A stretch of DNA of 45,901 nt. It comes from Escherichia phage vB_EcoS_Zar3M. Below the pieces are notes generated by a model. The model worked only from the letters and a program-made list of their open reading frames with translations, searched no databases and had not been told where the DNA came from. Position 1 is the first letter of the stretch, and the number at the start of each line of letters is the position of its first letter. The position numbers and the translations under genes were made by a program. Positions 3,289 to 45,901 of this stretch are shown piece by piece. Location of the stretch: sequence record NC_073065.1, one strand, 5' to 3'.

Positions 3289-3384
3289 ATCTACCACCGC
3301 GGTTAATTCCGGGCTTTTTATTGCTTGACTTGCAACCAACATAGAGGCCATACTGCGACCAATCAACGAGAGGAGTAGTAAACT

Positions 3385-4923: not shown

Positions 4924-4993
4924 TCCCCTTAGATGGCAGGGCCGTCTCCTATGTTGCCGATGGTCGGCGCATATGCACAAAAGGGCTTATATC

Positions 4994-5545: not shown

Positions 5546-6930
5546 TGCGTAACTATGCGGCAGAACATCGCGCCCTTGAACGAGCGATCGCAAAGCGAAA
5601 CAGACCGCCGCGCCCGACACGCGTTGCGCAGGCCGTCCGCCTTTACCAGCCTGATTGCCTTCCGCACCAGGTGGAACTACTGCGCGACACGAAGACTAAA
5701 ATCATCGGCCTGTGTTCCGGCTTCGGTGGCGGTAAGTCATGGGTCGCGGCGAGAAAGGTCATCCAGCTTTTAACACTAAACCCCGGTCATGATGGCATCG
5801 TAACAGAACCGACTATTCCCCTCCTGGTTAAAATCATGTACCCGGAATTGGAAAAGGCATTCGACGAGGCGGGCTTCAGGNGGAAGTTTAACAAGCAGGA
5901 CAAGATTTATAGCGTGCTGGTGAAAGGCAAGTGGACGCGCGTAATCTGTGAGTCAATGGAAAACTACACCCGCCTAATCGGGGTCAACGCCGCGNGGNTT
6001 GTTGCCGATGAGTTNGATACCACNAAACAAGACGTCGCAATGGNGGCTTACCACAAATTGCTTGGTNGTCTGNGTGCTGGNTTGGTGCGCCAGTTCGTCA
6101 TCGTGTCCACGCCTGAAGGCTTCCGGGCGATGTATCAGATTTTCGAAGTGGAGAAGGATAGCCAAAAACGTTTGATCCGGGCGAAGACTACCGATAATCA
6201 CCACTTACCGGCAGACTTTATCGACACTCTGCGCAGCCAGTACCCTGCTAACCTGATTGATGCGTACCTGAACGGTATGTTTGTCAACCTTACGTCGGGC
6301 GCGGTATACAAGATGTTCAATCGTGAGGAGAACGCCAGCACCGAAGAAGTGCAGCCGGAAGACACGCTGATTATCGGGATGGACTTTAACGTCACGAAAA
6401 TGGCGGCGGTCGTGTACGTCAGACGGCAGCGCATCACCGAAAACAAGGAGTTCCGCGACGAGATTCACGCAGTGGATGAATTCGTGGACCTGTTCGATAC
6501 CCCGGCTATGATTGAGGCGATCGAGGAGCGCTACCCCGATCATTGTGCTGCCGGTCGGGTCGTCGTTTACCCGGATAGCAGTGGCAAGTCTCGTAAGACT
6601 GTTAACGCATCGTCGTCCGATATAGCGCAACTGGAAGACGCAGGCTTCGAGGTGGAATACGACAGCGTTAACCCACCTGTGAAAGACCGATTGATCGCGA
6701 TGAATACGATGATGTGCAACTCGAAGGGCGTGCGCCAGTATTTTGTCAACCTGGATAAATGCCCTACACTAGCGAAATGTCTGGAACAGCAGGTTTACGA
6801 CCTGAAGAAAGGCGAGCCGGATAAAACCGCCGGTGTGGACCACATGAACGATGCCGCGGGTTATCCAATTGCGCACCTGTTCCCAGTGATTCGTCCGATC
6901 GCCGTTGTTCCAACTGTAGACTTCTACTAA
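5545..6930 (+). CDS. terminase large subunit
   Basis: Walker A GFGGGKS, Walker B-like VADE, C-terminal nuclease-type region; position between small subunit and portal. Confidence 0.85.
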   Translation: MRNYAAEHRALERAIAKRNRPPRPTRVAQAVRLYQPDCLPHQVELLRDTKTKIIGLCSGFGGGKSWVAARKVIQLLTLNPGHDGIVTEPTIPLLVKIMYPELEKAFDEAGFRXKFNKQDKIYSVLVKGKWTRVICESMENYTRLIGVNAAXXVADEXDTXKQDVAMXAYHKLLGXLXAXLVRQFVIVSTPEGFRAMYQIFEVEKDSQKRLIRAKTTDNHHLPADFIDTLRSQYPANLIDAYLNGMFVNLTSGAVYKMFNREENASTEEVQPEDTLIIGMDFNVTKMAAVVYVRRQRITENKEFRDEIHAVDEFVDLFDTPAMIEAIEERYPDHCAAGRVVVYPDSSGKSRKTVNASSSDIAQLEDAGFEVEYDSVNPPVKDRLIAMNTMMCNSKGVRQYFVNLDKCPTLAKCLEQQVYDLKKGEPDKTAGVDHMNDAAGYPIAHLFPVIRPIAVVPTVDFY

Positions 6931-11212: not shown

Positions 11213-11300
11213 TTGTTTTTCCTTCATGTCTCTGTTGGTGTGCAACCAATATAGTGCAACCAATACGCGGATTGCAAGCGAATTTTGCGATTATTTTTAT
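11213..11300 (-). promoter_or_regulatory. promoter-like element with tandem ATTGGTTGCAC motifs and conserved 40-bp box
   Basis: On - strand reads CTTGCAA-N8-ATTGGTTGCAC-TATATT-ATTGGTTGCACACC; shares ATAGTGCAACCAAT and TGCAAG(C/T)GAATTTTGC with 30281-30320. Confidence 0.4.
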
Positions 11301-20496: not shown

Positions 20497-21281
20497 ATAA
20501 ACTATATCGTGAGGCGACGCGCTTTGACCCATCGGGCCGCGTTCGCCTGATTCACATTGACGCGCAGGACGTGGAGCCTGGCGACGGCGCGATCGGCGCG
20601 GGCCATCACTATTTTCACTACTGCTTTATCCCGCACACTGCCGAAGATATTGCCNCNGNGGGNGGNGNNGNGNANAANNNAAAACCNAAANCCNTNTTNT
20701 TNGGNGGGNNGGNGTTNNAATTTTGGCCCTTNNATNTNTCCNGCCTTAACTTCNCCNCANCAACGGCANCANAACCNCAGCTAACCATCGTTGATATTGG
20801 CGGCATAATCACCCGGNTGTCGCTGAATCACGACCAGCTACTGGGCGCGAAGGTTGAGATCATTGATACGTTCGCGAAGTTCCTGGATAACGGATCGGAC
20901 CCAGACCCAACGCAAAAACGTGTCCAGGAGTATTACATAGACTCACAGGTAGGGCGCAATCCGGGCAAGCAGATCACCTTCGCGCTATCCTCCCCCGCGG
21001 ATATGGAGGGGCAAGTAGTACCACGCCGCCAGATCATGAACATGTGCGAATGGGCGCTCAATGGGAAGTACGCCAGCGGTGACGGTTGCACATGGAACCT
21101 TGCGCAGCCCGGAATCAAGTATTACGACGAGCGCGGAAACGAAGTCATCTCGATGACTATGGACCGATGCGGTGGATGCTTGTCGGACTGCTATCTTCGT
21201 TTTGGACAAGGTCTTGCGGATCCAAAAGCCGCAGTGTTGGACTTCGGCGGTTTTCCTGGGTCGAAATTGATTAAGGGGTAG
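20493..21281 (+). CDS. minor tail protein L (lambda gpL-like)
   Basis: Cys-rich C-terminal half (CEWALNG...GDGCTW...CGGCLSDCYLRF...FGGFPG) typical of gpL family; ATGA coupling. Confidence 0.7.
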   Translation: MNKLYREATRFDPSGRVRLIHIDAQDVEPGDGAIGAGHHYFHYCFIPHTAEDIAXXXXXXXXXKXKXXXXXGXXXXFWPXXXSXLNFXXXTAXXXQLTIVDIGGIITRXSLNHDQLLGAKVEIIDTFAKFLDNGSDPDPTQKRVQEYYIDSQVGRNPGKQITFALSSPADMEGQVVPRRQIMNMCEWALNGKYASGDGCTWNLAQPGIKYYDERGNEVISMTMDRCGGCLSDCYLRFGQGLADPKAAVLDFGGFPGSKLIKG

Positions 21282-21283
21282 TC

Positions 21284-22024
21284 ATGTTGACGAAAAAGGT
21301 TAAAAGTGATATCGCCNCACACGTTGCGGCATGTNTGCCGGAANAANCCNGNGGGNNGGTNGTCNTGGGGGGNCGNAAGNAAGTNTTCANCCCGTGCCNG
21401 AACGTCTTCGAAGACCCGACCGGCGTGCGCTCGCGCAAAGACGCTTTCACGATTAGTGATATGGCCTGGATGGATGCCGAGGATATGGGCGACGTCGTGC
21501 GTGTAGTCCACTCGCACCCAGGTCAGCGCGAGTTAACCCCGTCGTTGGGCGACGTTAACGGATGCAACGGCAGCGGCGTCGTCTGGACCATCACTAACGA
21601 ATATGGCGACTTTATCGAGATCGACCCGGAAGACCCGCCGCTGGTGGGTCGCAGATTTGTTCTCGGAATTACGGATTGTTATGGCCTCGTTATGGACTGG
21701 CATAAAAAGCAGGGCGTAAACCTGCCAGACTTCCGCGTACCGTACAACTGGTGGGAGACAGGCGAAAACCTGTATATGGACAATTGGTATGGAGCGGGCT
21801 TCCGGGAGTGTGCGGAGAATACGCCAGGGGCGATGGTCATCATGCAGATTAGCGCGCCAGTGCCTAACCATGCCGGAATCTACCTTCCGGGCAACCAACT
21901 ACTACACCATATCTACGGCAGCCTGTCGAGCGTGATCCCCTTCCGGGCAGGATTTTTCCGCGACAATGTGGTTAAATGGGTACGACATAAAGACCTACCG
22001 GGGAATATCACAGAATGGCAATGA
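21284..22024 (+). CDS. tail protein K (lambda gpK-like; JAB/MPN plus NlpC/P60 domains)
   Basis: JAMM-type VHSHP motif and NlpC/P60-type Cys in GITDCYGLV; position between L and I. Confidence 0.75.
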   Translation: MLTKKVKSDIAXHVAACXPEXXXGXXVXGXXKXXFXPCXNVFEDPTGVRSRKDAFTISDMAWMDAEDMGDVVRVVHSHPGQRELTPSLGDVNGCNGSGVVWTITNEYGDFIEIDPEDPPLVGRRFVLGITDCYGLVMDWHKKQGVNLPDFRVPYNWWETGENLYMDNWYGAGFRECAENTPGAMVIMQISAPVPNHAGIYLPGNQLLHHIYGSLSSVIPFRAGFFRDNVVKWVRHKDLPGNITEWQ

Positions 22025-22632
22025 CCACATTTAAATTGTACGGCGTCTTAGGACGTCGTTTTGGTAAAGTGCATAAGCTGGATTGCTTCACACCGGGCGA
22101 GGGTATCACCGGCCTGTGCGTTAAGTTACCCGGCTTACAGGACTTTCTAATGTCGGCCCACCTGGACAACATGATGTTCAAAGTGCGCAAGGGCAATCAC
22201 ACCATGACCGGCTATGATGAGCTGGGCGNGTTCCACGGCGACCGCGTAGTGACCATCNCNCCGGTTATGNNGGGNGNAAAAAGNGGNNNGGGCCAATTNN
22301 TGGGGGGGGNNGNGNTNGNGGNGGGGNNGTTNTNCGCCCCNGCNCTTGCNCCCCCCCCTTTTGGGGNTTNGGNNGCAACNGCNNCCNCTNTCGGTNCGGN
22401 GACGTTTTCGTTCGGCATGTCGCTTGCGATGGGCGGTGCTATGCAATTACTGTCGCCACAACCGAAAGGATTGCAGACCCGGCAGGACGTGGATAACAAA
22501 GCGTCGTACGCGTTCGGCGGACCGGTAAACACAACCGCGCAAGGCACGGCACTTGGTGTATTATGGGGCGAGCGTGAGATCGGCGGCGCTATTATTTCCG
22601 CCGGAATCGTAACCGAGGACTTGAACGAATGA
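22015..22632 (+). CDS. tail assembly protein I (lambda gpI-like)
   Basis: Position between K and J; N-terminal TTFKLYGVLGRRFGKVHKLD ubiquitin-like region; Gly-rich n-masked centre. Confidence 0.6.
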   Translation: MAMTTFKLYGVLGRRFGKVHKLDCFTPGEGITGLCVKLPGLQDFLMSAHLDNMMFKVRKGNHTMTGYDELGXFHGDRVVTIXPVMXXXKXXXGQXXGGXXXXXGXXXAXXLXPPPFGXXXAXXXXXGXXTFSFGMSLAMGGAMQLLSPQPKGLQTRQDVDNKASYAFGGPVNTTAQGTALGVLWGEREIGGAIISAGIVTEDLNE

Positions 22633-25600
22633 CGATTATCTACGACGTCACAGGGCATAAAGGCGGNGGCGGCAAACAGCACACCCCGCAGGAAACGCCG
22701 GANANCCNGCNTTCCCTGGCTAAAANCCGCATNTTGCTTGCGCNNGGGGNNGGGGAATTCGAAAGTATTACCNGCGCCNGCGAATTGNGGCNGNGTGTAT
22801 ACCTGGNCGGCACGCCGANCCAGAACGCCGACCTGTCTGAAAACTTCCCNGGCGCGCGCGTGGAGTTCCGCCCCGGTACACAGCACCAGGATGTGATCCA
22901 CGGATTTTCAGCGGTGGAAAGTGAGCAATCCGTCGGCGTAAAACTGGAAAACGGCACGCCGTGGGTGCGCCAGATTAACGACACCAGTCTTGACGCCGTG
23001 CGCATTCGTGTTGGTATCCCGGCCCTGTACACCAACGAAGATAATGGCGACCTGGTGGGCGGGCGCATCGACTATAAAATCGTTGTGTACACAGATAACG
23101 CCGACCCGCGCGAGTTCAACTTCGCTGCCGTTGGTAAAACAATGTCGCTGTATGAGCGCGACCACCGCATCGAATTACCGCCGAACGTGAACACCGGCTG
23201 GCGCGTGGAAGTGCACCGCACAACGGCAGATTCCACATCGGCGAAAGTGGTGAACGATATCCGGGTGCAATCAATCACTGAGATTATCGACGCCCGCCTG
23301 CGCTACCCGCAAACCGCGCTGTTGTTCGTGGAGTTCGACGCTAAAGCGTTCCAGAACATCCCGCGCGTATCCATTAAGTGCAAAGGCCGCAAAGTGCTGG
23401 TCCCGAACAACTACGATCCGATCAACCATACCTATTCGGGCGACTGGGATGGCACGTTTAAACGCGCGTGGACGGATAACCCTGCGTGGCACTGGTACGA
23501 TATTTGTATTACGGAGCGCTTCGGCCTCGGTCGCCGGATCAAACCGCAAATGCTGAACCGGTACGCGCTCTACCAGATTGCGAAGCGCTGCGATCAACTG
23601 GTCAGCGACGGCAACGGCGGGCAGGAAATACGATTTAAGAATGATATGTACATCCAGTCGCAGACAGACGCCTGGACCGTGCTTAAGGATTTAGCAGCTA
23701 TCTTTGCCGGTATGACCTGGTGGGGCAACCAGATGTTGAATATCGTAAGTGACCAGCCGGTCGCAGCGGTATCGCACACTATCACCAACGCCTCGGTTAT
23801 TGATGGCAGATTCGACTACGCGTCAGGGAGCCAGAAAACTCGCTATTCCACGTTCGCGGTAGCATACGGCAACCCTAAGAACCACTACGACGATGCCATC
23901 GCAACGGGACAGCGTGTCGAACTGGTACGCCGCCATAAGATTAACCGTCTGGATATTACGGCGATCGGCTGTACGCGTGAATCAGAAGCGCAACGCCGGG
24001 GGCACTGGGCGCTAATCTCCAACCAGCTTGACCAGCAAGTTAGCTTTAAGGTTGGCATGGAAGGACTATTCTTTATTCCTGGTAGTGTAGTCGCGATCGC
24101 CGATACAAACATTTCTGGCGGCTTCGAGACACGCGGCGGTCGCCTGTTGTCGGACCCCGGCACGCGTACCGTGCTTAACACGGACAGCGAAATCACGTTC
24201 CNCCCAGGTGATAAATTCCTGGTACGCACCGATAGCGGTAATGTGGAGACTCGCGAGATCGCCAGCGTCAACGGCAACAAGGTTACGCTAAAAACCGCAC
24301 TGGACGCCGACCCGATTCCAGACCAGCCGTTTTGCGTTGATGGCGACGATATCCAGTTGCAGAAGTTCCGCATAACCGACCTGGAATATGACGACTCTAC
24401 CAGCACTTTTTCGGTGCGCGGGATCGAGTACAACGACAGCAAGTATGATGCCGTTGATAATGGCGCGCGCCTTGATCCGGGTATCTTCACGCAAGTGCCA
24501 GACGGTGTAATGAAGGGGCCAGAGTCCGTGACCATCACTCCGTCGCAGATTTCATCGCAAGGCCAGCTAATCACCAACGTGGATATTGTTTTCCCGCCGG
24601 TGAAAGATGCCGTGGTGTATGAAATACAGTGGCGACGCACCAGCTTGCAGAATATGGCGGTCCAGTGGGGAAACGACTGGGTAAACATCCCCCGCACGGC
24701 ATCGAACGGCGCTCACATCCCTAACGTGTTCTCCGGTAACTACCAGGCACGCGTCCGCGCGATCGGTATGGGCGAGATTTCGTCCCCGTGGGTGTCGTCC
24801 GCTATCACGCCGGTGGAAGGTCGTCTCGGCGGTCTTAACGCNCCTATCNTCNCCAACGCGNTTTNGGGCCNCCNCCAAATTTTNTGGAAGNGGNGCCANA
24901 ANAACNCCNCGNNGGATATTTCGTACACCGAGCTTGAGGTCCGCAAGACGGGTGAAACGGAATGGAAGTTCCTAACCAACGTCCCATACCCCGGGTCGGA
25001 GTATGCGCAAACGTCGCTGGAGTTCGGCATCTATCAGCAGTTGCGCGCCCGTGTCGCGGATAAAATCGGCAACCTGTCGGACTGGTCGGCCCCGTTTGAG
25101 GGGCAGGTGAGTGACAAAGTTGACGAGTATATGAAGGGGCTTGATGACGCGTTCTTGACTTCCGAGGATGGTAAACACTTCCAGGAAGCAATAGACACGA
25201 TCCCGCAGGGTATTTACGAGGCGATGCTCACCGACGCGCAGCAATTGTTCAACGCCCGCGCNGAGTATAAAGGGATTTATGCGGAAATAACGGTGGCATA
25301 TAACGTGGCGGCGGACGCCCACAAGGCGGTCGCGCAACTTGAGACGTTGATCGGCACTCGTCTTGACGATGCAGAAGCGTCGATCCACACGTTGCAGACC
25401 GCGCAAAGCACGCATGAACAAGCGTTCGCCCAGTATCAACAAACGGTTGCCGCTAAGTTCGGGGAGCAGGAATCNGCNATNCAGCAGGTGCAAACGGCAA
25501 CGGCAGACGTAGCGGGCGCGCTGGCGGAGTACAAGACCCAGGTCGCGGCACAGTTCGGTCAGCAGTCCGCCGCTATCGAGCAGAAGATGACGTCCACGTT

Positions 25601-26051
25601 TAACCATGCCGGTGGCAACGCCACATACCGCCTTAAGGCTGGCGTGACGTATAACGGGACTTACTACGATGCCGGTATGCAGCTTTCAGTTGTTGCGGAA
25701 GGTGGCGAGGTTAAATCCCGCATCGCGTTCAAGGCGGACCAGTTCTACATCATGCACCCATCTAACGGGTCGCTTTCGTCCGCGTTTATCGTGGACGGCG
25801 GCGCGGTGTATATTGACACGGCACGCATCAAGGACGCGACTATCAACTTCGCGCAGATCACGGACACGCTGCAATCGAATAACTATGACGGCTACTCGCG
25901 TGGCTGGCGCTTAGGGAAAGACGGAACGTTTATCAACCTGGGAACCGGTAACGGTGGCGGGGCGATGAAAATGACGAATGACACAATCAGCGTAAAGGAT
26001 TCTAACGGAGTTTTGCGAGTTCAGATTGGTAAAATCACGGGGGGTTGGTGA
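22629..26051 (+). CDS. host specificity / tip attachment protein J
   Basis: 1140-aa protein after gpI with ATGA coupling; size, position and beta-rich sequence as in lambda J-type central fibre proteins. Confidence 0.8.
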   Translation: MTIIYDVTGHKGXGGKQHTPQETPXXXXSLAKXRXLLAXGXGEFESITXAXELXXXVYLXGTPXQNADLSENFXGARVEFRPGTQHQDVIHGFSAVESEQSVGVKLENGTPWVRQINDTSLDAVRIRVGIPALYTNEDNGDLVGGRIDYKIVVYTDNADPREFNFAAVGKTMSLYERDHRIELPPNVNTGWRVEVHRTTADSTSAKVVNDIRVQSITEIIDARLRYPQTALLFVEFDAKAFQNIPRVSIKCKGRKVLVPNNYDPINHTYSGDWDGTFKRAWTDNPAWHWYDICITERFGLGRRIKPQMLNRYALYQIAKRCDQLVSDGNGGQEIRFKNDMYIQSQTDAWTVLKDLAAIFAGMTWWGNQMLNIVSDQPVAAVSHTITNASVIDGRFDYASGSQKTRYSTFAVAYGNPKNHYDDAIATGQRVELVRRHKINRLDITAIGCTRESEAQRRGHWALISNQLDQQVSFKVGMEGLFFIPGSVVAIADTNISGGFETRGGRLLSDPGTRTVLNTDSEITFXPGDKFLVRTDSGNVETREIASVNGNKVTLKTALDADPIPDQPFCVDGDDIQLQKFRITDLEYDDSTSTFSVRGIEYNDSKYDAVDNGARLDPGIFTQVPDGVMKGPESVTITPSQISSQGQLITNVDIVFPPVKDAVVYEIQWRRTSLQNMAVQWGNDWVNIPRTASNGAHIPNVFSGNYQARVRAIGMGEISSPWVSSAITPVEGRLGGLNXPIXXNAXXGXXQIXWKXXXXNXXXDISYTELEVRKTGETEWKFLTNVPYPGSEYAQTSLEFGIYQQLRARVADKIGNLSDWSAPFEGQVSDKVDEYMKGLDDAFLTSEDGKHFQEAIDTIPQGIYEAMLTDAQQLFNARXEYKGIYAEITVAYNVAADAHKAVAQLETLIGTRLDDAEASIHTLQTAQSTHEQAFAQYQQTVAAKFGEQEXXXQQVQTATADVAGALAEYKTQVAAQFGQQSAAIEQKMTSTFNHAGGNATYRLKAGVTYNGTYYDAGMQLSVVAEGGEVKSRIAFKADQFYIMHPSNGSLSSAFIVDGGAVYIDTARIKDATINFAQITDTLQSNNYDGYSRGWRLGKDGTFINLGTGNGGGAMKMTNDTISVKDSNGVLRVQIGKITGGW

Positions 26052-26054
26052 TAT

Positions 26055-26076
26055 AGGGGCTTCGGCCCCTTCTATT
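26055..26076. terminator. bidirectional terminator between J (+) and reverse operon (-)
   Basis: AGGGGC-TTCG-GCCCCT hairpin with T-rich tail; flanked by convergent stops. Confidence 0.5.
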
Positions 26077-26689
26077 AATCGTATTTAGCCGCATCTATTG
26101 CGAGTATGGATGGTGAATAATAAACGCCGAGCGGCCCTGGTGTGTGGGCGACTTGCTTAGATATCGAATAAATGCTTGTTCCGGATGCGCCGGATTGTGA
26201 TTCATAAATCGCGTGCCCACCAATCTGAGGGGTGGGAACCGAGTTTATTGCCGTTTGTTGTGGCGATACGGCACATGTATACCCCAGATTAACATCAAAA
26301 GACAGACCATTTATCGGTATTTGGTGGGCCTCCAGCGGCAGCATTTTCCCGTGGTACACCATATTCCCAGCAGAATTATAGAATGCGATCCCGTAGTCTC
26401 CTGGCGGGGTAACCATATCACTAAAAGCATAAACCTTAATCCATCCGGGATTGTCGGTCTTGTCTAGCCGGAGCGCATGGTAACCCCCGTTATTTATGTG
26501 AGAGAATGCGGTGTACGCTCGCCCGCCCATCCTCACAAAGAAAAAGCACACGCGATCGAATGGTATTGGCGTTGTAAAAACAGAACCGCTATACACCCCC
26601 ATATCACCGCGACTTATTAAATTAACAGGCGTAAAATCCGGGCTTAACCAAATGGACCCATCCGGCTTTGTGATCTGCATTCCGTACAT
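26075..26689 (-). CDS. hypothetical protein (204 aa), Gly/Tyr/Ser-rich
   Basis: Intact ORF; ATG one nt after upstream stop (TAAcATG); third gene of reverse-strand lipoprotein operon. Confidence 0.45.
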   Translation of the reverse strand: MYGMQITKPDGSIWLSPDFTPVNLISRGDMGVYSGSVFTTPIPFDRVCFFFVRMGGRAYTAFSHINNGGYHALRLDKTDNPGWIKVYAFSDMVTPPGDYGIAFYNSAGNMVYHGKMLPLEAHQIPINGLSFDVNLGYTCAVSPQQTAINSVPTPQIGGHAIYESQSGASGTSIYSISKQVAHTPGPLGVYYSPSILAIDAAKYD

Positions 26690-26690
26690 G

Positions 26691-26969
26691 TTACCCCCAA
26701 TACGTATATATAAATCTTGATTCGCCAGCGTTAAAGCCGCTCCAGGAGACAGTGTTGTCGCTTACGGATATTGATGGCGCACCCCAAGATGTGCCGTTCC
26801 AGGTATGCGTACCAACGTAACCTGCCTTTAAACTTTTCCCCGGCGGACGGTTGTGATACGTCTTGCTCCCGGATGGTTGTGTGAATTTGTCAAGAAAAAA
26901 AACCGGCGTTAACAGGCCTGTGACGTCACGACCATGTTCGTCATAAATCGCGTACCCATAGTTACTCAT
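26691..26969 (-). CDS. hypothetical protein (92 aa)
   Basis: ATG at 26969 preceded by GGAG; 8-nt ATGAGTAA overlap with lipoprotein gene stop. Confidence 0.4.
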   Translation of the reverse strand: MSNYGYAIYDEHGRDVTGLLTPVFFLDKFTQPSGSKTYHNRPPGKSLKAGYVGTHTWNGTSWGAPSISVSDNTVSWSGFNAGESRFIYTYWG

Positions 26970-27231
26970 TTCTACACTCCACAATTTCAAATTTATCTTC
27001 GCTTTGCCATCTGTGAACGAAAGTTACAAATTTCTGTGATGGGGCTACTCGGTATTGTTTTTCGCCAAATCGGTTTTCACGCACCGCGTTTAGTTTAACA
27101 GGGTAGCTATCGTTTACGGGGAATGTTTTAACCGCATATTGGCCTACGCAATCGATAGCCTTGTAGTTGCCGTCTGGCGATGCGGAGCAACCGGACAAAA
27201 GAACCGCACAAATCATAATTAAAGTTTTCAT
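26962..27231 (-). CDS. small outer-membrane lipoprotein (Cor/Llp-like superinfection exclusion candidate)
   Basis: ATG at 27231 with AGGAG RBS; signal peptide plus lipobox MKTLIMICAVLLSGCSASP; divergent from tail fibre gene. Confidence 0.55.
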   Translation of the reverse strand: MKTLIMICAVLLSGCSASPDGNYKAIDCVGQYAVKTFPVNDSYPVKLNAVRENRFGEKQYRVAPSQKFVTFVHRWQSEDKFEIVECRNE

Positions 27232-27311
27232 GGTATCATCTCCTATATTTGGTTGAGTTTTAGTATTACACCGCTCGATCAAGAATGCAACCAATTTACG
27301 AGGATTTAGCT

Positions 27312-29135
27312 ATGGCAGCGGGCACACTATCCGTAACGAATAACAGCAAGGCGGTTGTAGGGGTCGGGACAACGTTTACCGCGTTTAACGCTGGCGACTT
27401 CTTAACGCTGGTGGTAGGGCAAGTCCCCTACACCGTAGCAATCGCGTCCGTTGAAAGCGAAACCGCGCTTACGCTGGTGTTACCGTTCGACGGCCCAACG
27501 GCAACCGGCCTTGCGTGGGATGGCGTTAAGCGCGATACCATGTCACTGGCGACGATGGGCGTAACCGTACAGGCACAGAAAGCATTGCGCTTGATGCTTG
27601 CAGATGAAAACAACTGGCGTGCAATCTTCGGCGACGCTGAAGAAATAACCGTGACGTTGCCTAACGGGCAGGTAATGCAGGGTATGTCATGGGGATATCT
27701 GTCGCAGTTGATGAAACAGGTCGACCCAGTTGAGATGCGCAACCTGCAACAGCAAGCCGCCGCATCTGAAGCAGCCGCGCAGGGATACCGGAACGAGGCC
27801 GAAGGCTTCAAGACCGAGACGGCGGGCATTCGCGACGCCACCAATCAGATTAAGGCGGATACGCAGGCGATCCACGACGCCACTAATACCATCAAGACGC
27901 AGACTGACCTGATTAAGACTGATACTCAGGCCATCAAGGACCAGACGAACCAGATCAAGACTGACACCGGCGTTATTCGTGACGAAGCCAATATGGCGAA
28001 GACTGACGCGCAGGCCGCCAGCGCTGCCGCGCAGGGATTTCGCGATCAGGCCGAAGAATGGGCGCAAAGCGTAAACCCCGACAATCTGCTAACCAAATCC
28101 GGCAACCTCGCCGGGCTTGCGGACAAAAGTGCGTCGTGGGCTAACCTTATGCCGTCAGGACCGCTTCGCGTAGGTGCGGACCCCGTAAACACCCTGGACG
28201 CTGCGACTAAAGGGTGGGTGTGGCGCGGTCTTGATGACGTGGGGCTTTGGGGTTTACGCAATAACTACGCTTCAGAACCCGCAGGGGGTGCAGAAGTATA
28301 CGGCGGGCGCTTTGACTCCTCTGTGAACGTCGCAGGGACCGAAAAATACAGAATGTCGATACAGCTTCAGGGGCGTAATAACGTAGACGCCTGGACACGT
28401 TTGGCGACCGCTGACGTCCGCAGCATGGCGAACGCGGCGACGTGGGACTTTAAATATGATGGCAAGATTATTTTCAATAAGGGATTGAGTCCATCGTCCA
28501 CCTCGGCGTCGCCAGGTAATACCTACGTAACCCTTGCGAATACATGGATGGACAGCCAATACTCGGGACACGTCGGCTTTGTTGGAGGCGGGGCGGGGAC
28601 GAGTGGTGGCGGGTGGCGTAACTTTATTTCGTTCGGCGCGCTGATCCACCCGCCCACCGGTAACTCGCACCCCCATGCTATGATTGCGCAGGTCTTTGAT
28701 TATGATTTGGCGTCCGGGACACAGCCTAACGGCGATAGCGTTCGAAACACTACATTCAACCCCGAAGCATACGATATCACCTTCGGCAACAACTTAGGGA
28801 CTGTTAACTATATTTTCGCAAAGTCCCCGGTATCCGATAGGGCGCTGAAGCATGATATCGCCCGGATCGATACTCAAGTTGCGTACGATAACGTTATGAC
28901 TATGGAGTACTCGTCCTTTGTTTATAACTACGACAAAAAAGAGACGGTTAGACGTGGTTTTATCGCGCAGCAGTTGGAAGAGATCGACCCGCAGTATGTC
29001 CGCAAGTACACCAACGCAACCGGTAAAGAGTTTCTGGCATTAGATGAAAACGTCCTACTACTTGACCTAATCGCGACTGTTCAGCATTTGGCGGCGAAGG
29101 TTGAGGCGTTAGAAAGTAAGTTAGCGGAGAAATGA
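27312..29135 (+). CDS. tail fibre protein with C-terminal intramolecular chaperone (peptidase S74-like) domain
   Basis: ATG at 27312 with AGGA RBS; coiled-coil heptad-like repeats (IKADTQAIHDATNTIKTQTDLIKTDTQAIKDQTNQIKTDTGVIRDEANMAKTDAQ); C-terminus DRALKHDIARIDTQVAYDNVMTMEYSSFVYNY...GFIAQQLEEIDPQYV typical of auto-cleaving chaperone domains. Confidence 0.75.
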   Translation: MAAGTLSVTNNSKAVVGVGTTFTAFNAGDFLTLVVGQVPYTVAIASVESETALTLVLPFDGPTATGLAWDGVKRDTMSLATMGVTVQAQKALRLMLADENNWRAIFGDAEEITVTLPNGQVMQGMSWGYLSQLMKQVDPVEMRNLQQQAAASEAAAQGYRNEAEGFKTETAGIRDATNQIKADTQAIHDATNTIKTQTDLIKTDTQAIKDQTNQIKTDTGVIRDEANMAKTDAQAASAAAQGFRDQAEEWAQSVNPDNLLTKSGNLAGLADKSASWANLMPSGPLRVGADPVNTLDAATKGWVWRGLDDVGLWGLRNNYASEPAGGAEVYGGRFDSSVNVAGTEKYRMSIQLQGRNNVDAWTRLATADVRSMANAATWDFKYDGKIIFNKGLSPSSTSASPGNTYVTLANTWMDSQYSGHVGFVGGGAGTSGGGWRNFISFGALIHPPTGNSHPHAMIAQVFDYDLASGTQPNGDSVRNTTFNPEAYDITFGNNLGTVNYIFAKSPVSDRALKHDIARIDTQVAYDNVMTMEYSSFVYNYDKKETVRRGFIAQQLEEIDPQYVRKYTNATGKEFLALDENVLLLDLIATVQHLAAKVEALESKLAEK

Positions 29136-29140
29136 GAATA

Positions 29141-29164
29141 AGGGGCCATACGGCCCCTTTTTTA
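29141..29164. terminator. bidirectional intrinsic terminator between late (+) and replication (-) operons
   Basis: AGGGGCC-ATAC-GGCCCCT followed by TTTTTT; convergent stops on both sides. Confidence 0.65.
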
Positions 29165-29737
29165 GTTTGAGTTTTCCCAGTCCATTTTGCGCCGCACCAG
29201 CGGGCTTTCAAAGTATTCCTTGCCCTCAACTTCCACCAAAGGCCAGTCGTTCACAATCACGTACGGCTCCGCGATATCCTCAATCACGCCGTGCGCGCTT
29301 TGCGGCCCTAACGACACACCAACCAGGATAACCCCGGCAACTCGACGAGTGAGATACTCGCGAGCGCAACGTGCCTCAACCAGCCCCCTACGGATGCCGC
29401 TGGTGGCCTTAACCTCGTACGCCCAAACGGCATCAATCATATGTTCCCGGAAGTCGGGACCAGACTTTACCTTGCGTTTGCCGACCATGATAATATCGCC
29501 GCGGTCGATAGTGTTAGCGCTAAACAGGCCGGTACGCATTAGCAAACCTTGAGGGATACAGCTACGCCCGCCCGCCTGCCCTTCTAGGTACATGCCCGCA
29601 AACATCTCACCCAGCACACCTACAAGGCGGCTTTGTTTGCACGCGTCAGACTTTAAGCGCCACTGTTCAAACTCTATGCTTGCGATCATTGCTGCGAGGT
29701 GGAATTGTTTACCGGTTATTTCATATTCGCCGTACAT
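29162..29737 (-). CDS. hypothetical protein, possible PD-(D/E)XK nuclease
   Basis: GPDF...(18 aa)...YEVKA resembles a PD-(D/E)xK core; weak assignment. Confidence 0.35.
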   Translation of the reverse strand: MYGEYEITGKQFHLAAMIASIEFEQWRLKSDACKQSRLVGVLGEMFAGMYLEGQAGGRSCIPQGLLMRTGLFSANTIDRGDIIMVGKRKVKSGPDFREHMIDAVWAYEVKATSGIRRGLVEARCAREYLTRRVAGVILVGVSLGPQSAHGVIEDIAEPYVIVNDWPLVEVEGKEYFESPLVRRKMDWENSN

Positions 29738-29778
29738 TGTGAATCCCTCATTGATGCGGGCCGAAGCCCGCGATTAAA

Positions 29779-30231
29779 TTATTTAAGTGCGCCAGTCACC
29801 AGTGTTTTTTCCATGTTGCGGAAATCTTCCGGCGTCATGAGGATTTTGGACCCATCTTCGCCGGTGAGCACGACCATAGGCCGGGCGTCTTGATCTGCGG
29901 TGGGGCAACCTTTGAGGCTTTCAAACTGTTCTGCCGTTGTGTCGATCTGAATCTCGTCATGCACGGGCATGTAAGACTCGCCCAGCAGGGAGGCATACGC
30001 CACCAGGTCCACGATGTTATCTTCCTGGTGCTTACGGTGCTGTCGCACCAGCTTCAGGCAGATCAGGAAGGTCCAGGCTTCTTGCTCGGTCAGGTCGCGA
30101 CCGGTAAGCGCGTTAAACACGGCAGCGATTTGCTTAGCGCTGCGTTCCTCTTTCGCGTTGTCATAGCCGTTTTCTTTTCCGCGCTGTTCCATAGTGGTGG
30201 CGGCGTTTTTGCAGTATTCGTATGCTTTCAT
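29779..30231 (-). CDS. hypothetical protein (150 aa), all-alpha acidic
   Basis: Intact ORF with AAAAAGGAAAACACCATG start context; upstream promoter-like box with palindrome GCAACCAATTTATTGGCTGC. Confidence 0.45.
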   Translation of the reverse strand: MKAYEYCKNAATTMEQRGKENGYDNAKEERSAKQIAAVFNALTGRDLTEQEAWTFLICLKLVRQHRKHQEDNIVDLVAYASLLGESYMPVHDEIQIDTTAEQFESLKGCPTADQDARPMVVLTGEDGSKILMTPEDFRNMEKTLVTGALK

Positions 30232-30294
30232 GGTGTTTTCCTTTTTCGGGGAGGCCGTATTGCCTCCCTGCGCGTTAACTATAGTGCAACCAAT

Positions 30295-30765
30295 TTATTG
30301 GCTGCAAGTGAATTTTGCAACGTTTATTGCGTAAATATTCGGGACCAGATCNNTGNNCGCCCGACGAATTGCCGCGATGTTCTTCTCGCAATCTTCAATG
30401 ATGACCAGTTCCGACACGTCCGCATAGCAGACCATTTTGAACACGGCGCACGCCTTAAACTCAGGCGGTGGGGTGTCGTCCAGCATGTGGCGCATAAACA
30501 ACCGACCGACAGGGAAGACCTCCAGTTGCTCGGCGGTAGTCTCCCAGCATTCTCGCTGCCGGTTTGTCAGATACGCGATCTCGAAGCCTTGCTCTTTATA
30601 CATGCTCAACAGCGGCAGCATATCCATGTTAAGGTCTTCGCGTACGTGCGCTTTGTGCCACTTCGCCCAAAATGTTGATTTGGTTTTTATACCTGGAACC
30701 AGGTCGGCGCGTGCATCACTCGAACCATTAATAACGCCATCAAGATCACAAATCAGTAGTTTTAT
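30295..30765 (-). CDS. HAD-superfamily hydrolase (phosphatase/nucleotidase-like), non-ATG start
   Basis: HAD motif I KLLICDLDGVI lies 46 codons upstream of the first ATG (30627); motif II IAYLTNRQ, motif IV-like IIEDCEKN; only in-frame start is ATA at 30763-30765 overlapping the upstream TAA. Confidence 0.5.
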   Translation of the reverse strand: MKLLICDLDGVINGSSDARADLVPGIKTKSTFWAKWHKAHVREDLNMDMLPLLSMYKEQGFEIAYLTNRQRECWETTAEQLEVFPVGRLFMRHMLDDTPPPEFKACAVFKMVCYADVSELVIIEDCEKNIAAIRRAXXDLVPNIYAINVAKFTCSQ

Positions 30766-30986
30766 TGTAAGCTCTCAATAAGGGTGTATCGGACGCTGCG
30801 CGCGGAAAACTTGTTACACACAAGATGCCAACGGGCGGTTATGACCAGCCAGCCGGTAAGATCCAGGCCCAGGATATATTCTGGACGTGACACGCGCTTC
30901 ACACGATCGCGGCGCGGGTCGATGTTATAGTCTATTTGCATTCGGACTACTACCGCAGGGTCGCGGTTAACGATTAAGATATTCAT
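30762..30986 (-). CDS. hypothetical protein (74 aa)
   Basis: Intact ORF between Dam and HAD genes; overlaps both. Confidence 0.4.
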   Translation of the reverse strand: MNILIVNRDPAVVVRMQIDYNIDPRRDRVKRVSRPEYILGLDLTGWLVITARWHLVCNKFSARSVRYTLIESLQ

Positions 30987-31452
30987 GTAGTACTCCTTCG
31001 CTCATTATTTCAATTCGTGCGCTGCCGATTGGCGGCGCTTCGTCAAAGATTATCAATTGCTGGCACTTGTTATTGCTCGGCCCGACTTCACCGGTGACAG
31101 CGTGTATAAATCTAATCCGCCAGTCCAGAAGAATTATCAGGTTTGCCGCCTTCCGGGCCAGCTTCGCCCACTTCGTCGACGTGTCCTGATTCAGTAGCAT
31201 GACAGTCTGGCGTCCGTGCGCCGCGCATTCCACCCACGGCAGCGGATCGGAATACGGCGGGTTGCACCACTTCCACCCTTTCAACTCTGCCCAGTCCACA
31301 TCAAGCGCGCTGTGCTCTGCCGTGAAGTAACGCGGTAGCAGATGATTGGCGTCGCTTGCCGCCATATCGTAACGGAATCGGTACTTCCGACGAAGCGGTT
31401 TAAATAAAGCTGGCGGCGTGCGCCAGCTATCTTTTTGCTTATTCTTCTGCAT
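30967..31452 (-). CDS. DNA N6-adenine methyltransferase (phage Dam-type)
   Basis: N-terminal WRTPPALF, DMAASDANHL and NPPY catalytic motif (WCNPPYSD), matching the small phage T1-type Dam family. Confidence 0.7.
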   Translation of the reverse strand: MQKNKQKDSWRTPPALFKPLRRKYRFRYDMAASDANHLLPRYFTAEHSALDVDWAELKGWKWCNPPYSDPLPWVECAAHGRQTVMLLNQDTSTKWAKLARKAANLIILLDWRIRFIHAVTGEVGPSNNKCQQLIIFDEAPPIGSARIEIMSEGVLHEYLNR

Positions 31453-31903
31453 GACCTGGATCTATCGCATAAAGTGGACTCTTATTGCCGGTTTTCATAA
31501 CGCGCTGGACGCGCTTTGACTCCTCGGCGCTCAGTTGGCGCGCATTCGTGTATAACCTGCCGTTTGTATGTATGCGCCACGCTATCAGCACCAGATCTTT
31601 CCGGTCGATCTTAGACTGGCGGCCCTTCGGTCGCACGTACGCCTCGGCCCGTTTGCAATGCTCGCGCAGACCTTCGGCAGTGATGCGGTTTAGTTGAACG
31701 GTGGTTGTGTACCCGGTGCGCTGCATAATACCCATCAACTCATACAGCAGTTCGAAGCGCTCCTCTAATTCCTTGCGCGCCTTCTCCTCGCCTTCATATC
31801 GCGCATGATAGGTGTCTGCCAGCGCGCTAACACGTTCGGCCTGTTCTCGGGCTTCGAGGCATTGCGCGGCCCAGTATGCTTTNTCGAAAAATAATGATCT
31901 CAT
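31439..31903 (-). CDS. hypothetical protein (154 aa)
   Basis: Listed ORF begins at TTG; likely true start is ATG at 31903 (GGAGACGACACATG). Helical, charged protein. Confidence 0.45.
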   Translation of the reverse strand: MRSLFFXKAYWAAQCLEAREQAERVSALADTYHARYEGEEKARKELEERFELLYELMGIMQRTGYTTTVQLNRITAEGLREHCKRAEAYVRPKGRQSKIDRKDLVLIAWRIHTNGRLYTNARQLSAEESKRVQRVMKTGNKSPLYAIDPGHAEE

Positions 31904-31990
31904 CGTGTCGTCTCCAGGTATTAAAAAAGGGCGTCCAAACCGGACACCCTCAATATAACGCAACCAATATGATTATGCAACCAATTTACG
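31904..31990 (-). promoter_or_regulatory. promoter-like region with two ATTGGTTGC motifs
   Basis: On - strand: CGTAAATTGGTTGCATAATCATATTGGTTGCGTTATATT then RBS; shares 17/18 nt (ATGCAACCAATTTACGA) with 27285-27302. Confidence 0.4.
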
Positions 31991-32303
31991 AATAAAAGTT
32001 CGGGTCGCGTGCGACGTCTACCAGGTAAAGGTTACTTATGCGGTTGCCGTAGTGCCCTGGAGTGCGCTGGCGGCACACAACGGCGAAGCCGGGAGGGATT
32101 GTATTGCCCGTCTCAATAATCCACGCGACGCGTGCGCCAGACAGCGTCTTTCCGTTGCATTCGATACGTGTTCCGCCATCGGCAGTATTGATGTTGCCAA
32201 TCTTGCAGCCGGTGGACTTCAGACGGATGACGCCGGTTTTGCTGTCGTAGGTGAATAGCTGGTTAGTCATTGCGACCGAAAAGTCGATGGCTTCGAATGT
32301 CAT
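31986..32303 (-). CDS. HNH endonuclease-like protein (intact copy)
   Basis: Pattern LFTYDSKTG...GKTLSGARVAWIIETG..IPPG...NRISNLYLV resembles HNH_3-type phage endonucleases, though the canonical DH dyad is not obvious; ATGA overlap with methyltransferase. Confidence 0.45.
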   Translation of the reverse strand: MTFEAIDFSVAMTNQLFTYDSKTGVIRLKSTGCKIGNINTADGGTRIECNGKTLSGARVAWIIETGNTIPPGFAVVCRQRTPGHYGNRISNLYLVDVARDPNFYS

Positions 32304-32995
32304 TTTAAATTTTCCTCGTTAACCGCTATCGCGAAGCCGCGCGGAGTGAGCGACCGGATTAATTTTGTGCGGGCTGATTTGCCTCCGAGGCGACTATACT
32401 GCTTCGAGTACCCTTTTTCAACGAAAACAGGTCTCTTCTCTGGCATACGGAAGCCGTTGCCGGTCCATAAGCAGGTCAGCTTCGGATATGAATCGCGAGC
32501 GTTGATGTATTCCGGGAAGAGCGGGTGTACGTCATCCTCCGGCAGATATCCCCCATACTCCCACGGGTCGAATGAGTGATCCGGCTTGCGCCACTGGGTG
32601 GAAAGCACACTGCGCGGATTCTCAATCATATATGGCACTTCAAAGAAGTCACCTAAGTAAGCGGCAATCTTCGCGGNGCGCACCGCCTTAAGCTGAAAGG
32701 CAGGGTCTTTAGCACGCTTGCGAGGGAAAGCGGGTGCACCGCTCACTGCCAGATCCGTACACGGCGGGAATGCATAAATGATATCCGGCGTGCCGAAATC
32801 ACCATTCATCGCGCGGTCCACGAAGTCCAGATCGATAAACTCATTACGATATCGGATACCGCGCCCATAAATCCGGTAGTCCAGGTACGAGCCGTGATCG
32901 GCTTCGGAGTAGTTGAAGCAATAACACTTATGCCCCATCTCGGCAGCACGCTCAATCATCAAGCCGCTGCCGTCGAATAATGACCAGATAATCAT
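32300..32995 (-). CDS. DNA (cytosine-5)-methyltransferase-like protein, copy 1
   Basis: Motif I-like SLFDGSG, PC motif AFPPCTDLAVSG, ENV-like MIENP; 231 aa (short for a C5-MTase). Confidence 0.6.
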   Translation of the reverse strand: MIIWSLFDGSGLMIERAAEMGHKCYCFNYSEADHGSYLDYRIYGRGIRYRNEFIDLDFVDRAMNGDFGTPDIIYAFPPCTDLAVSGAPAFPRKRAKDPAFQLKAVRXAKIAAYLGDFFEVPYMIENPRSVLSTQWRKPDHSFDPWEYGGYLPEDDVHPLFPEYINARDSYPKLTCLWTGNGFRMPEKRPVFVEKGYSKQYSRLGGKSARTKLIRSLTPRGFAIAVNEENLK

Positions 32996-35960: not shown

Positions 35961-36239
35961 TTATGCGACCAATTCAGCAACCAATAAATCGCAGTCGGAT
36001 ATGTTGTCGATAACGCGAACGTCAGCACCGCGGCGGGCCATTCGCTCATGTTCACGTACCTGGTGCGGCTTCGGTTTTCCTCCGGGGCGCTTCACTTCGA
36101 CGAACACTATTTTGCCGTTGATGATAATAATCAGGTCGGGCGCACCCGCGCGCCCCTCCCATGCCAGTTTGCGGCAGAATCCGCCTACCTCTTTCACCCG
36201 TCGCTTCAGGTGACTTTGAATCTTGCCCTCTGGTGTCAT
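35961..36239 (-). CDS. VRR-NUC domain nuclease
   Basis: Motif GAPDLIIIINGKIVFVEVKRPGG (PD...E-V-K); start at 36239 or at 36311 overlapping polymerase 3' end. Confidence 0.6.
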   Translation of the reverse strand: MTPEGKIQSHLKRRVKEVGGFCRKLAWEGRAGAPDLIIIINGKIVFVEVKRPGGKPKPHQVREHERMARRGADVRVIDNISDCDLLVAELVA

Positions 36240-45471: not shown

Positions 45472-45546
45472 TTTGTGCGCGCATTGGTTGCCGATTTGGG
45501 AATTCCGATATGATTAAAAGATTAATTTGTGCGCGCATTGGTTGCC
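45457..45546. repeat. two ~35-bp direct repeats each containing ATTGGTTGCC
   Basis: TGATT(T)AAAAGATTAATTTGTGCGCGCATTGGTTGCC at 45457-45490 (overlapping primase stop) and 45510-45546; third ATTGGTTGCC at 45572-45581. Confidence 0.6.
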
Positions 45547-45619
45547 ATTTTTAGTGTTTTTATCTGGTCGTATTGGTTGCCGTGTAGTGTGTATATAATG
45601 AATAGTTATGCAATAAAAC

Positions 45620-45790: not shown

Positions 45791-45901
45791 TAAAATCCGG
45801 GGATTGCAAATTACACGGNAGCATNACGCGAAGTGCGGTCGCGGATGAACTAGGCAACCAATGCAAACCGCATTACGCTGAGTGAAAAATGCGGTTTGCA
45901 G

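Follow-up and report, generated by a model that had tools for sequence, protein, structure and literature searches.

A candidate BtuB-type receptor-specificity cassette directly after the gpJ homologue of Escherichia phage vB_EcoS_Zar3M

Three minus-strand genes between two tail fibre genes

The window analysed here is the whole 45,901-nucleotide stretch of Escherichia phage vB_EcoS_Zar3M (NC_073065.1), of which the region under study is 99.8% identical to MK373789, the Dhillonvirus Escherichia phage vB_EcoS_PTXU06. Directly after the gene for the gpJ-like central tail fibre, which ends at 26051, comes a cassette of three minus-strand genes (26075-27231), with the lateral tail fibre gene on its far side. 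The features referred to throughout are as follows.

22629-26051, plus strand: gpJ-like central tail fibre, 1140 aa (MK373789 annotation, COG4733)
26056-26069: GC-rich hairpin GGGGC-TTCG-GCCCC, between the convergent stops of gpJ (26049-26051) and of the 204-aa gene (26075-26077)
26072-27187: receptor-specificity cassette exchanged relative to the FhuA-type phage JLBYU60, comprising the 204-aa gene, the 92-aa gene and the mature lipoprotein (pairwise blastn)
26075-26689, minus strand: gene for a 204-aa protein, phrog_425 (open reading frame, profile match)
26691-26969, minus strand: gene for a 92-aa protein, phrog_557 (open reading frame, profile match)
26962-27231, minus strand: gene for an 89-aa lipoprotein (open reading frame, lipobox, hydrophobic N-terminus)
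27190-27231, minus strand: signal peptide with lipobox of the lipoprotein, followed by the Cys15 codon (27187-27189) and the mature part, Cys15-Glu89, 75 aa
27232-27311: divergent control region of 80 bp, holding the ATTGGTTGCA motif and a candidate minus-strand promoter (from sequence)
27312-29135, plus strand: lateral tail fibre with C-terminal intramolecular chaperone (phrog_1980, 1.4e-123; Peptidase_S74, 2.3e-11)

The original prediction had described a divergent lipoprotein operon next to the tail fibre gene, and much of that description holds. The 89-aa lipoprotein with its lipobox LLSGC is present; 80 bp lie between its ATG (27231) and the plus-strand fibre ATG (27312), and this divergent arrangement does contain the ATTGGTTGCA motif. 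The genes are tightly coupled, with an 8-nt overlap between lipoprotein stop and 92-aa start (ATGAGTAA) and a single nucleotide separating the end of the 92-aa gene from the 204-aa ATG. Both downstream genes are indeed Gly/Tyr/Ser-rich, these residues making up 32.6% of the 92-aa and 27.0% of the 204-aa protein versus 15.7% of the lipoprotein. As for the neighbouring gene, the operon does adjoin the lateral fibre, but the more relevant neighbour is the gpJ-like fibre on the other side, the presumed carrier of the receptor-binding protein (RBP). The operon's functional partner is gpJ, and the divergently transcribed lateral fibre is a neighbour outside the cassette.

Within the control region, ATTGGTTGCA lies on the minus strand at 27286-27295, and 55 nt separate it from the lipoprotein start downstream. 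The window contains 8 exact copies, and 20 when up to one mismatch is allowed, against 3.15 expected; none of 100 shuffles reached 20. Reading by eye, we find a candidate minus-strand promoter consisting of TTGCAT (27285-27290), a 17-nt spacer and TGtAATACT with its -10 hexamer at 27262-27267; AGGAG precedes the lipoprotein ATG. An automatic promoter and terminator scan made no convincing call either in the 80-bp region or beyond the end of the operon. The hairpin at 26056-26069, likewise read by eye, is a candidate bidirectional terminator that the scan left uncalled because its T tract is weak.

An exchangeable locus and its likely receptor

Pairwise blastn comparisons locate the junctions of the cassette. 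Homology to FhuA-type JLBYU60 stops at 26071 and resumes at 27188, and homology to LptD-type Oekolampad stops at 25924 and resumes at 27183. One edge follows closely on the gpJ stop codon and the other coincides with the lipobox Cys codon, and what is swapped between receptor types is exactly the two proposed RBP genes plus the mature lipoprotein. The 5' part of the lateral fibre gene is kept in JLBYU60 and Oekolampad regardless of receptor allele (again by pairwise blastn), and the last ~45 residues of gpJ (about 25917-26048) are common to FhuA- and BtuB-type phages but not to LptD-type Oekolampad. The locus behaves, in other words, as an exchangeable allele flanked by conserved sequence. Among 152 matching records, the only Dhillonvirus carriers of the BtuB-type allele are PTXU06 and BEK2-2; KarlJaspers, a member of the Drexlerviridae, shows 77% DNA identity over 25959-27153 (blastn).

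Loci of this kind have been described before. In Drexlerviridae and Dhillonvirus, RBP loci downstream of gpJ, together with their cognate exclusion genes, match receptor specificity (Maffei 2021, PMC8594841), and the locus considered here is the "bona fide RBP locus downstream of gpJ" of that study. The PTXU06 locus has already been drawn in S2B Fig of Humolli 2025 (PMC11990801), where the Dhillonvirus colour key includes BtuB. The three genes are an already described swappable host-receptor module of small coliphages; the observation is real, and it is largely known.

With regard to the receptor itself, KarlJaspers (Bas06, bas06_0024-0026) and FritzSarasin (Bas04, bas04_0023-0025) are both BtuB-dependent, and their BtuB-type locus consists of these three genes too, identically ordered and oriented and directly after gpJ. 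Identities for the 204-aa protein (full length), the 92-aa protein and the lipoprotein are 84, 81 and 79% to Bas06 and 61, 72 and 53% to Bas04. The host genome here is a Dhillonvirus, whereas Bas06 and Bas04 are Drexlerviridae; the lipoprotein carries the Dhillonvirus signal peptide instead of the Drexlerviridae BtuB-type one (MKKLIAV...), and the downstream neighbour is the lateral fibre where Bas06 and Bas04 have recombination genes. A 2026 preprint ties one locus-encoded family to BtuB, with a criterion of >30% identity and >99% coverage. Judged by homology, the terminal receptor is most likely BtuB, the TonB-dependent transporter for vitamin B12, and not FhuA as it is for llp and cor.

A module just as described might still use another outer-membrane protein, its specificity having shifted since the split from the KarlJaspers allele. 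The RBP differs from that of KarlJaspers at 16% of residues, and PTXU06 receptor data are found neither in a literature search nor in the BASEL 2025 paper or the FhuA study. Homologues of the pair also occur in Stx-converting podophages as 933W L0126/L0127 (VT2-Sakai H0142/H0143), small and large in the same order at 55% and 42% identity, in a short-tailed virion and followed by lom rather than by a small lipoprotein gene. These podophages are not known to use BtuB, so that family membership alone does not fix the receptor. On the other hand, FritzSarasin (at 61%) and KarlJaspers (at 84%) are alike in their BtuB dependence and the window protein lies well inside that range, while published locus-to-receptor matching is without exception among the small siphoviruses tested (PMC8594841; 2026 preprint). 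We regard a different receptor as unlikely.

The 92-aa and 204-aa proteins

The original prediction had treated the two downstream genes as being of unknown function. Their products nonetheless have significant full-length profile matches, the 92-aa protein to phrog_557 (1.1e-18) and the 204-aa protein to phrog_425 (2.8e-47), and are close homologues of the two proteins encoded beside gpJ whose presence goes with BtuB dependence in Drexlerviridae. The small gene lies directly upstream of the large one, in the same order as in JLBYU60 and VT2-Sakai. A Pfam search returned nothing for any of the three proteins, and PDB sequence searches gave chance-level matches only. In a fold search, an AF2 model of the 204-aa protein (pLDDT 88.9) has as its best match the solved RBP of Oekolampad, whose fold it may share; the next match scores 6.1. 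That solved RBP is encoded at the same locus in a sister phage. By sequence, the comparison of the pair with the Oekolampad RBP yields an hhalign probability below 1%, a BLASTP E of 4.7 and different PHROGs (1265 versus 425 and 557).

Elsewhere, both kinds of protein are joined in single chains of ~310-325 aa, which resemble the 92-aa protein at the N-terminus and the 204-aa protein at the C-terminus (hhalign 95%, E 2.5e-8). One such fused protein, P0190, matches phrog_557 at residues 19-74 and phrog_425 at residues 94-312; its gene immediately follows that of a gpJ homologue and precedes that of a Peptidase_S74 fibre, with no lipoprotein nearby. Within the 204-aa family the N-terminal 24 residues are the best conserved part, and in the AF2 model they are disordered, as would be expected of a docking segment. 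We propose that the two proteins act as one unit, with the 92-aa protein as the tail-proximal or adaptor half of a split RBP and the 204-aa protein as its distal, receptor-binding half and predicted BtuB binder. On these homologies and the model, the pair is most likely the receptor-binding protein itself. The T1 cryo-EM paper leaves the distal gpJ tip unresolved (PMC11945409) and is consequently silent for or against incorporation of the pair into the virion.

Might all three genes instead form a receptor-masking operon, in which the 92-aa and 204-aa proteins are envelope-associated exclusion accessories and gpJ itself binds the receptor? The pair is, after all, co-transcribed and coupled with the lipoprotein, and it has been proposed that the two 'membrane' proteins of the T1 cor cassette could be exclusion components (PMC13164509). 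However, both proteins lack a signal peptide, a lipobox and any hydrophobic or membrane segment (top 19-residue hydropathy means of 0.55 and 1.00), and the model of the 204-aa protein resembles a solved phage RBP. The fused version, moreover, follows gpJ without a lipoprotein nearby, and Stx phages have the pair without one. The name 'membrane protein' is itself a poor guide, as the verified RBP of Oekolampad bears the same label (phrog_1265), which marks such PHROG names as legacy labels. An exclusion role for the pair strikes us as improbable. At this locus, the PHROG labels 'outer membrane protein', 'membrane associated protein' and 'Cor' mislead genome annotation.

Two further roles were considered and rejected: that of a chaperone for the lateral fibre, since the fibre has its own Peptidase_S74 domain and the fibre gene is kept whichever cassette is present, and that of envelope or 'moron' proteins, as the PHROG names imply, because export signals are absent.

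The proposed split RBP can be set against two other arrangements. In the LptD-type locus of Oekolampad (bas18_0025, RBP; bas18_0026, superinfection exclusion (SE) lipoprotein) and Rtp (Rtp44, Rtp45), the RBP is a single chain of 321 aa rather than 92 + 204 aa, there is no detectable sequence similarity, the gpJ C-terminus differs, and the receptor is LptDE, not a TonB-dependent transporter. The FhuA-type cor cassette (T1, phi80, N15, HK022; JLBYU60 gp25-gp27) has the same PHROGs 557 and 425 plus a small lipoprotein, and the same C-terminal ~45 residues of gpJ. Its pair, however, is on the plus strand, convergent with cor, and identities to the window proteins are only 24% (92-aa) and 21% (204-aa).

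The lipoprotein and the proposed mode of action

The lipoprotein begins with MKTLIMICAVLLSGC and has a lipobox L-S-G-C, with Cys15 and a Ser at +2; its N-terminus is hydrophobic (top 19-residue Kyte-Doolittle mean of 1.47, at residue 1). The signal peptide is identical in the window (BtuB-type), in JLBYU60 Cor (FhuA-type) and in the Oekolampad SE lipoprotein (LptD-type), whereas the mature parts differ. This has consequences for homology searches. The full-length lipoprotein matches the Cor profile phrog_1119 at 2.8e-7, but the match is due to the signal peptide and disappears once that peptide is removed, the mature part giving no phrog_1119 match at E up to 10. The controls behave accordingly: the mature Cor of JLBYU60 (57 aa) matches at 9.7e-18 and the mature lipoprotein of KarlJaspers at only 0.028, while the unrelated Oekolampad lipoprotein also matches Cor, through residues 1-30 alone. 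Similarly, a profile search finds Llp (8a60_B, PDB 8A60 chain B) at E 1, through the signal peptide only. The mature domain belongs to a family different from Cor.

By position the lipoprotein corresponds to Cor, Llp and Rtp45. It stands exactly where FhuA-type Dhillonviruses have Cor and where LptD-type Oekolampad has its exclusion lipoprotein. Beyond BEK2-2 (93% identity), close homologues (52-79%) are found in Drexlerviridae records that also carry a BtuB-type RBP. By analogy, the lipoprotein is most likely a BtuB-specific superinfection exclusion protein, a candidate for blocking after infection the same receptor that the RBP would use. The original idea of a Cor/Llp-like receptor-masking lipoprotein thus survives as a credible candidate, given the Cor slot and the shared signal peptide, but not as a claim of homology to Cor or Llp in the mature part. 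Because the RBP is BtuB-type, exclusion of FhuA phages is not expected.

The T5 pair oad (pb5) and llp likewise places an RBP gene beside a small lipoprotein gene whose product blocks a TonB-dependent receptor from the periplasm, although the T5 RBP family is unrelated and the window lipoprotein has no significant match to Llp. In T5, oad and llp are separate transcription units. Llp jams FhuA from the periplasm (PMC9586334), and Rtp45 binds LptDE from the periplasm. In Llp, of 61 aa, a Cys11-Cys58 disulfide links the termini (PMC9586334); the 75-aa mature lipoprotein has a similar pattern in Cys14 and Cys72, which, with Cys1, are invariant in an alignment of six sequences and may form an equivalent bond. 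The AF2 model of the mature lipoprotein (pLDDT 41, from a 6-sequence alignment) is too poor for fold comparison with Llp or Rtp45.

A weak relative of the lipoprotein occurs in Proteus phage 3H10_20 (E 8e-4) among early genes, with no adjoining RBP.

If the larger genes encode the RBP, the lipoprotein could in principle still be something else: an unrelated outer-membrane lipoprotein (moron), an o-spanin-like lysis component or an assembly factor. The poor structure model and the lack of a significant Cor or Llp match in the mature domain leave room for such a reading, as does the setting of the Proteus relative away from any RBP. Against this, the lipoprotein is exchanged along with the RBP genes at a junction that coincides exactly with the lipobox, it occupies an exclusion lipoprotein slot behind the same signal peptide as in the Cor and LptD types, and its close homologues travel with BtuB-type RBPs. 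We consider a function outside exclusion very improbable; the o-spanin variant in particular was rejected, there being no i-spanin partner and no lysis genes nearby.

Taken together, the region is probably a BtuB-type allele of the receptor-specificity cassette, made up of a split BtuB-binding RBP and its cognate exclusion lipoprotein. What the analysis establishes is how the genes are laid out, their homologies, a fold match, the existence of fused proteins and where recombination has cut. For virion location, BtuB binding, exclusion activity and its mechanism, we infer the following course. A single minus-strand transcript from the 80-bp region would encode the lipoprotein, the 92-aa and the 204-aa protein in that order. 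The latter two would be made in the cytoplasm as virion components, the 92-aa chain lying tail-proximally and the 204-aa beta-sandwich protein binding the terminal receptor, most likely BtuB. After export and lipidation at Cys15, the lipoprotein would, given its Ser at +2, be directed to the outer membrane's inner leaflet, where it may bind the receptor's periplasmic face and so prevent RBP binding. As a result, superinfecting BtuB-dependent phages would be excluded and progeny would not be lost on cell debris.

A bolder reading, which we offer tentatively and hold to be somewhat less than evenly balanced, is that the FhuA-, BtuB- and LptD-type locus proteins, so far called unrelated, are one ancient beta-sandwich RBP lineage, found split (92 + 204 aa), fused (~320 aa) and as L0126/L0127 of Stx podophages. 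The small chain or N-terminal domain would then be a universal gpJ-tip adaptor, and the window lipoprotein the first of a new, non-Cor family of BtuB-jamming proteins.

The choice of outer-membrane protein used by the phage is set by this cassette, and so, probably, is the range of phages that an infected cell goes on to exclude. As a compact 1.1-kb unit with clean junctions, it is a practical handle for re-targeting small siphoviruses, and its exchange explains jumps in receptor use between phage families. A complex of BtuB with the lipoprotein would bear on the generality of T5 Llp-style periplasmic jamming of TonB-dependent transporters.

The lipoprotein locus and its motif

Between the genes for the gpJ-like central tail fibre and the lateral tail fibre lie three minus-strand genes:

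22629-26051, plus strand: gpJ-like central tail fibre gene
26056-26069: hairpin GGGGC-TTCG-GCCCC between the convergent stops of the gpJ and 204-aa genes
26075-26689, minus strand: gene for a 204-aa protein
26691-26969, minus strand: gene for a 92-aa protein
26962-27231, minus strand: gene for an 89-aa lipoprotein
27312-29135, plus strand: lateral tail fibre gene, with a C-terminal Peptidase_S74 domain

The three form a compact unit, with the lipoprotein gene first, two coupled genes for a proposed receptor-binding protein (RBP) after it, a motif-bearing 80 bp before and the hairpin behind. The original prediction had described a lipoprotein gene divergent from the tail fibre gene and followed by two translationally coupled, Gly/Tyr/Ser-rich genes, and every detail of this observation is confirmed: the 89-aa product begins MKTLIMICAVLLSGC, with a hydrophobic N-terminus, lipobox LSGC and Ser at +2; the divergent intergenic region measures 80 bp and carries ATTGGTTGCA at 27286-27295 on the minus strand; the lipoprotein gene overlaps the 92-aa gene by 8 nt, which is separated from the 204-aa gene by a 1-nt gap; and Gly, Tyr and Ser together make up 32.6% (92-aa) and 27.0% (204-aa) of residues.

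Scanning the window, we find ATTGGTTGCA strongly over-represented, with 20 sites at no more than one mismatch against 3.15 expected (eight exact). Sites lie at 40-49, 71-80, 604-613, 3331-3363, 11241-11264 and 27286-27295, and at 30285-30306, 31959-31985, 35964-35985, 45483-45581 and 45853-45862, mostly in intergenic sequence upstream of gene starts and often as tandem pairs 12-35 nt apart. The motif may serve as a promoter or operator specific to the phage.

An exchanged cassette of probable receptor specificity

The system is of a known kind, and a published figure already shows the copy in this phage, both being covered by earlier work on RBP loci. In Drexlerviridae, Dhillonvirus, Nonagvirus and Seuratvirus, the "bona fide RBP loci" that come straight after gpJ correspond in every case to the known receptor and are often swapped by horizontal exchange (Maffei et al. 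2021, PMC8594841); a later comparison, covering the loci from Dhillonvirus isolates and from PTXU06, has BtuB in its receptor colour key (Humolli et al. 2025, PMC11990801). A 2026 preprint confirmed the hypervariable locus and tied one family encoded there to BtuB, supported by AlphaFold3 RBP-receptor models (Bas06 among them), and noted one or two accessory proteins. For the LptD-type allele structures have been solved: the RBP of Oekolampad (Bas18) sits on the extracellular face of LptDE and lipoprotein Rtp45 on the periplasmic face, where it blocks RBP binding. For the BtuB-type proteins the roles are predicted. What we add is the split versus fused RBP, the junction at the lipobox and the finding that the Cor label is an artefact of the signal peptide.

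Positions 25500-29500 are virtually identical, at the same coordinates, to Escherichia phage vB_EcoS_PTXU06 (MK373789, Dhillonvirus), with 99.8% identity over 25900-27500. Outside this segment the two phages differ: the flanks diverge by about 7% (20900-32500 compared with MK373789), 182 of the 203 differences in gpJ fall at codon position 3, and the window contains 577 scattered N. Only three differences lie inside the three-gene locus, all at stop or start codons (26076, TGA to TAA; 26691, TAG to TAA; 26969, GTG to ATG, which also alters lipoprotein residue 88).

Among 152 matching phage records, only PTXU06 and BEK2-2 (both Dhillonvirus) share the allele at the DNA level, and most of the remaining Dhillonvirus records match in the flanks only. 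Outside the genus, the closest relatives belong to the Drexlerviridae: KarlJaspers (Bas06) shows 77% identity in DNA and 84%, 81% and 79% in the 204-aa protein, 92-aa protein and lipoprotein, the corresponding protein values for FritzSarasin (Bas04) being 61%, 72% and 53%. The terminal receptor of both, by experiment, is BtuB (supplementary table, PMC8594841). Five 49,946-bp 'Campylobacter phage' records (MG065643, MG065649, MG065657, MG065680, MG065681) also carry a BtuB-type locus, which shares 77% identity with the window and is of a kind characteristic of coliphage Hanrivervirus; their host labels look doubtful.

In pairwise blastn, homology to the FhuA-type Dhillonvirus JLBYU60 stops at 26071 and restarts at 27188, at the lipobox Cys codon (27187-27189), while homology to Oekolampad stops at 25924 and restarts at 27183. 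Between receptor types the exchanged unit thus comprises the two RBP genes and the mature lipoprotein, and because homology resumes at the lipobox the window lipoprotein, JLBYU60 Cor and the Oekolampad exclusion lipoprotein all have the same signal peptide, MKTLIMICAVLLSGC. Judged from these alignments, such a pattern would be expected if the lipoprotein were specific for the receptor of its RBP.

A probable receptor-binding protein in two halves

The two genes had been called unknown, which does not hold: they belong to phrog_425 (204 aa, E 2.8e-47) and phrog_557 (92 aa, E 1.1e-18) and are homologous to the pair in BtuB-dependent KarlJaspers and FritzSarasin. A Pfam search of the three proteins gave no match. 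[quoted passage not shown]

For the 204-aa protein AF2 gives a confident model (pLDDT 88.9, pTM 0.84, 71-sequence alignment) that is all-beta and disordered at residues 1-20 only. The model's tentative match to the Oekolampad RBP fold was missed by Foldseek against the PDB (best E 0.024), and sequence comparisons detected no similarity to that RBP; in BFVD, Foldseek found the fold at TM 0.5-0.66 among uncharacterised proteins from a wide range of phage types. Conservation in the family peaks at the first 24 residues and a C-terminal I...YD, and this N-terminal stretch, the part AF2 cannot place, fits a docking segment. The last ~45 gpJ residues are common to phages of the BtuB and FhuA types, both of which have the 557/425 pair, but differ in LptD-type Oekolampad.

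The 92-aa protein is itself similar to about the first 89 residues of proteins in the 204-aa family (hhalign probability 71%, E 3.7e-5). A YG-x-x-I...G...TP motif opens both, and the Oekolampad RBP has a similar N-terminus, which suggests a duplicated docking module.

An exhaustive profile search returned 204-aa family members of ~310-325 aa in which the match begins near residue 100; over their N-terminal ~100 residues they show homology to proteins of the 92-aa type (hhalign probability 95%, E 2.5e-8). In one, P0190, phrog_557 matches residues 19-74 and phrog_425 residues 94-312, and its gene directly follows a gpJ homologue and precedes a Peptidase_S74 fibre. On the strength of these fusions, the 92-aa and 204-aa proteins are two halves of a chain that is single elsewhere; together they total 296 aa, about the size of the Oekolampad RBP (321 aa). 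The P0190 gene (322 aa) lies at 1228-2196 of a metagenomic prophage-like contig, with UmuD- and UmuC-like genes beyond it and no adjoining lipoprotein.

The interpretation of the original prediction is right in part. A role of the pair as exclusion accessories has been suggested for T1 (PMC13164509), but here the pair lacks export signals, the 204-aa model tentatively matches an RBP fold, fusions exist and the pair occurs without the lipoprotein, so that we regard it as unlikely.

Stx-converting podophages carry a homologous pair, H0142/H0143 (933W L0126/L0127), 55% and 42% identical to the 92-aa and 204-aa proteins; in VT2-Sakai it occupies 4768-5618, corresponding to window 26075-26969, just upstream of lom and without an adjacent small lipoprotein. 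Possibly the pair serves these podophages as a distal RBP that has gone unrecognised. At 42% identity such relatives make the family broader than BtuB; a terminal receptor other than BtuB is nevertheless improbable for the present phage.

The lipoprotein and its proposed receptor blocking

The lipoprotein matches phrog_1119, named Cor superinfection exclusion protein (E 2.8e-7), and the source of this match is its signal peptide. Searched alone against PHROGs, the mature lipoprotein gives no phrog_1119 match, only phrog_27799 (E 0.0017), whereas mature JLBYU60 Cor scores 9.7e-18 against phrog_1119; the unrelated Oekolampad exclusion lipoprotein matches Cor through residues 1-30 only. Invariant Cys14 and Cys72 of the mature lipoprotein resemble the termini-linking Cys11-Cys58 of Llp, the exclusion lipoprotein of phage T5. 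The AF2 model is too poor for use (pLDDT 41), and those who solved the Rtp45 and Llp structures likewise found predictions of these proteins inaccurate (Llp: PMC9586334).

We infer that the 92-aa and 204-aa proteins would assemble at the tip of gpJ and attach to BtuB, and that the lipoprotein, once lipidated and delivered to the outer membrane, would bind BtuB from the periplasm and stop RBP binding; another role for it is very unlikely. Since BtuB, like FhuA, is a TonB-dependent transporter, Llp-like jamming of its plug is plausible by analogy. Blocking BtuB would keep BtuB-dependent phages out of the infected cell and shield the progeny from debris.
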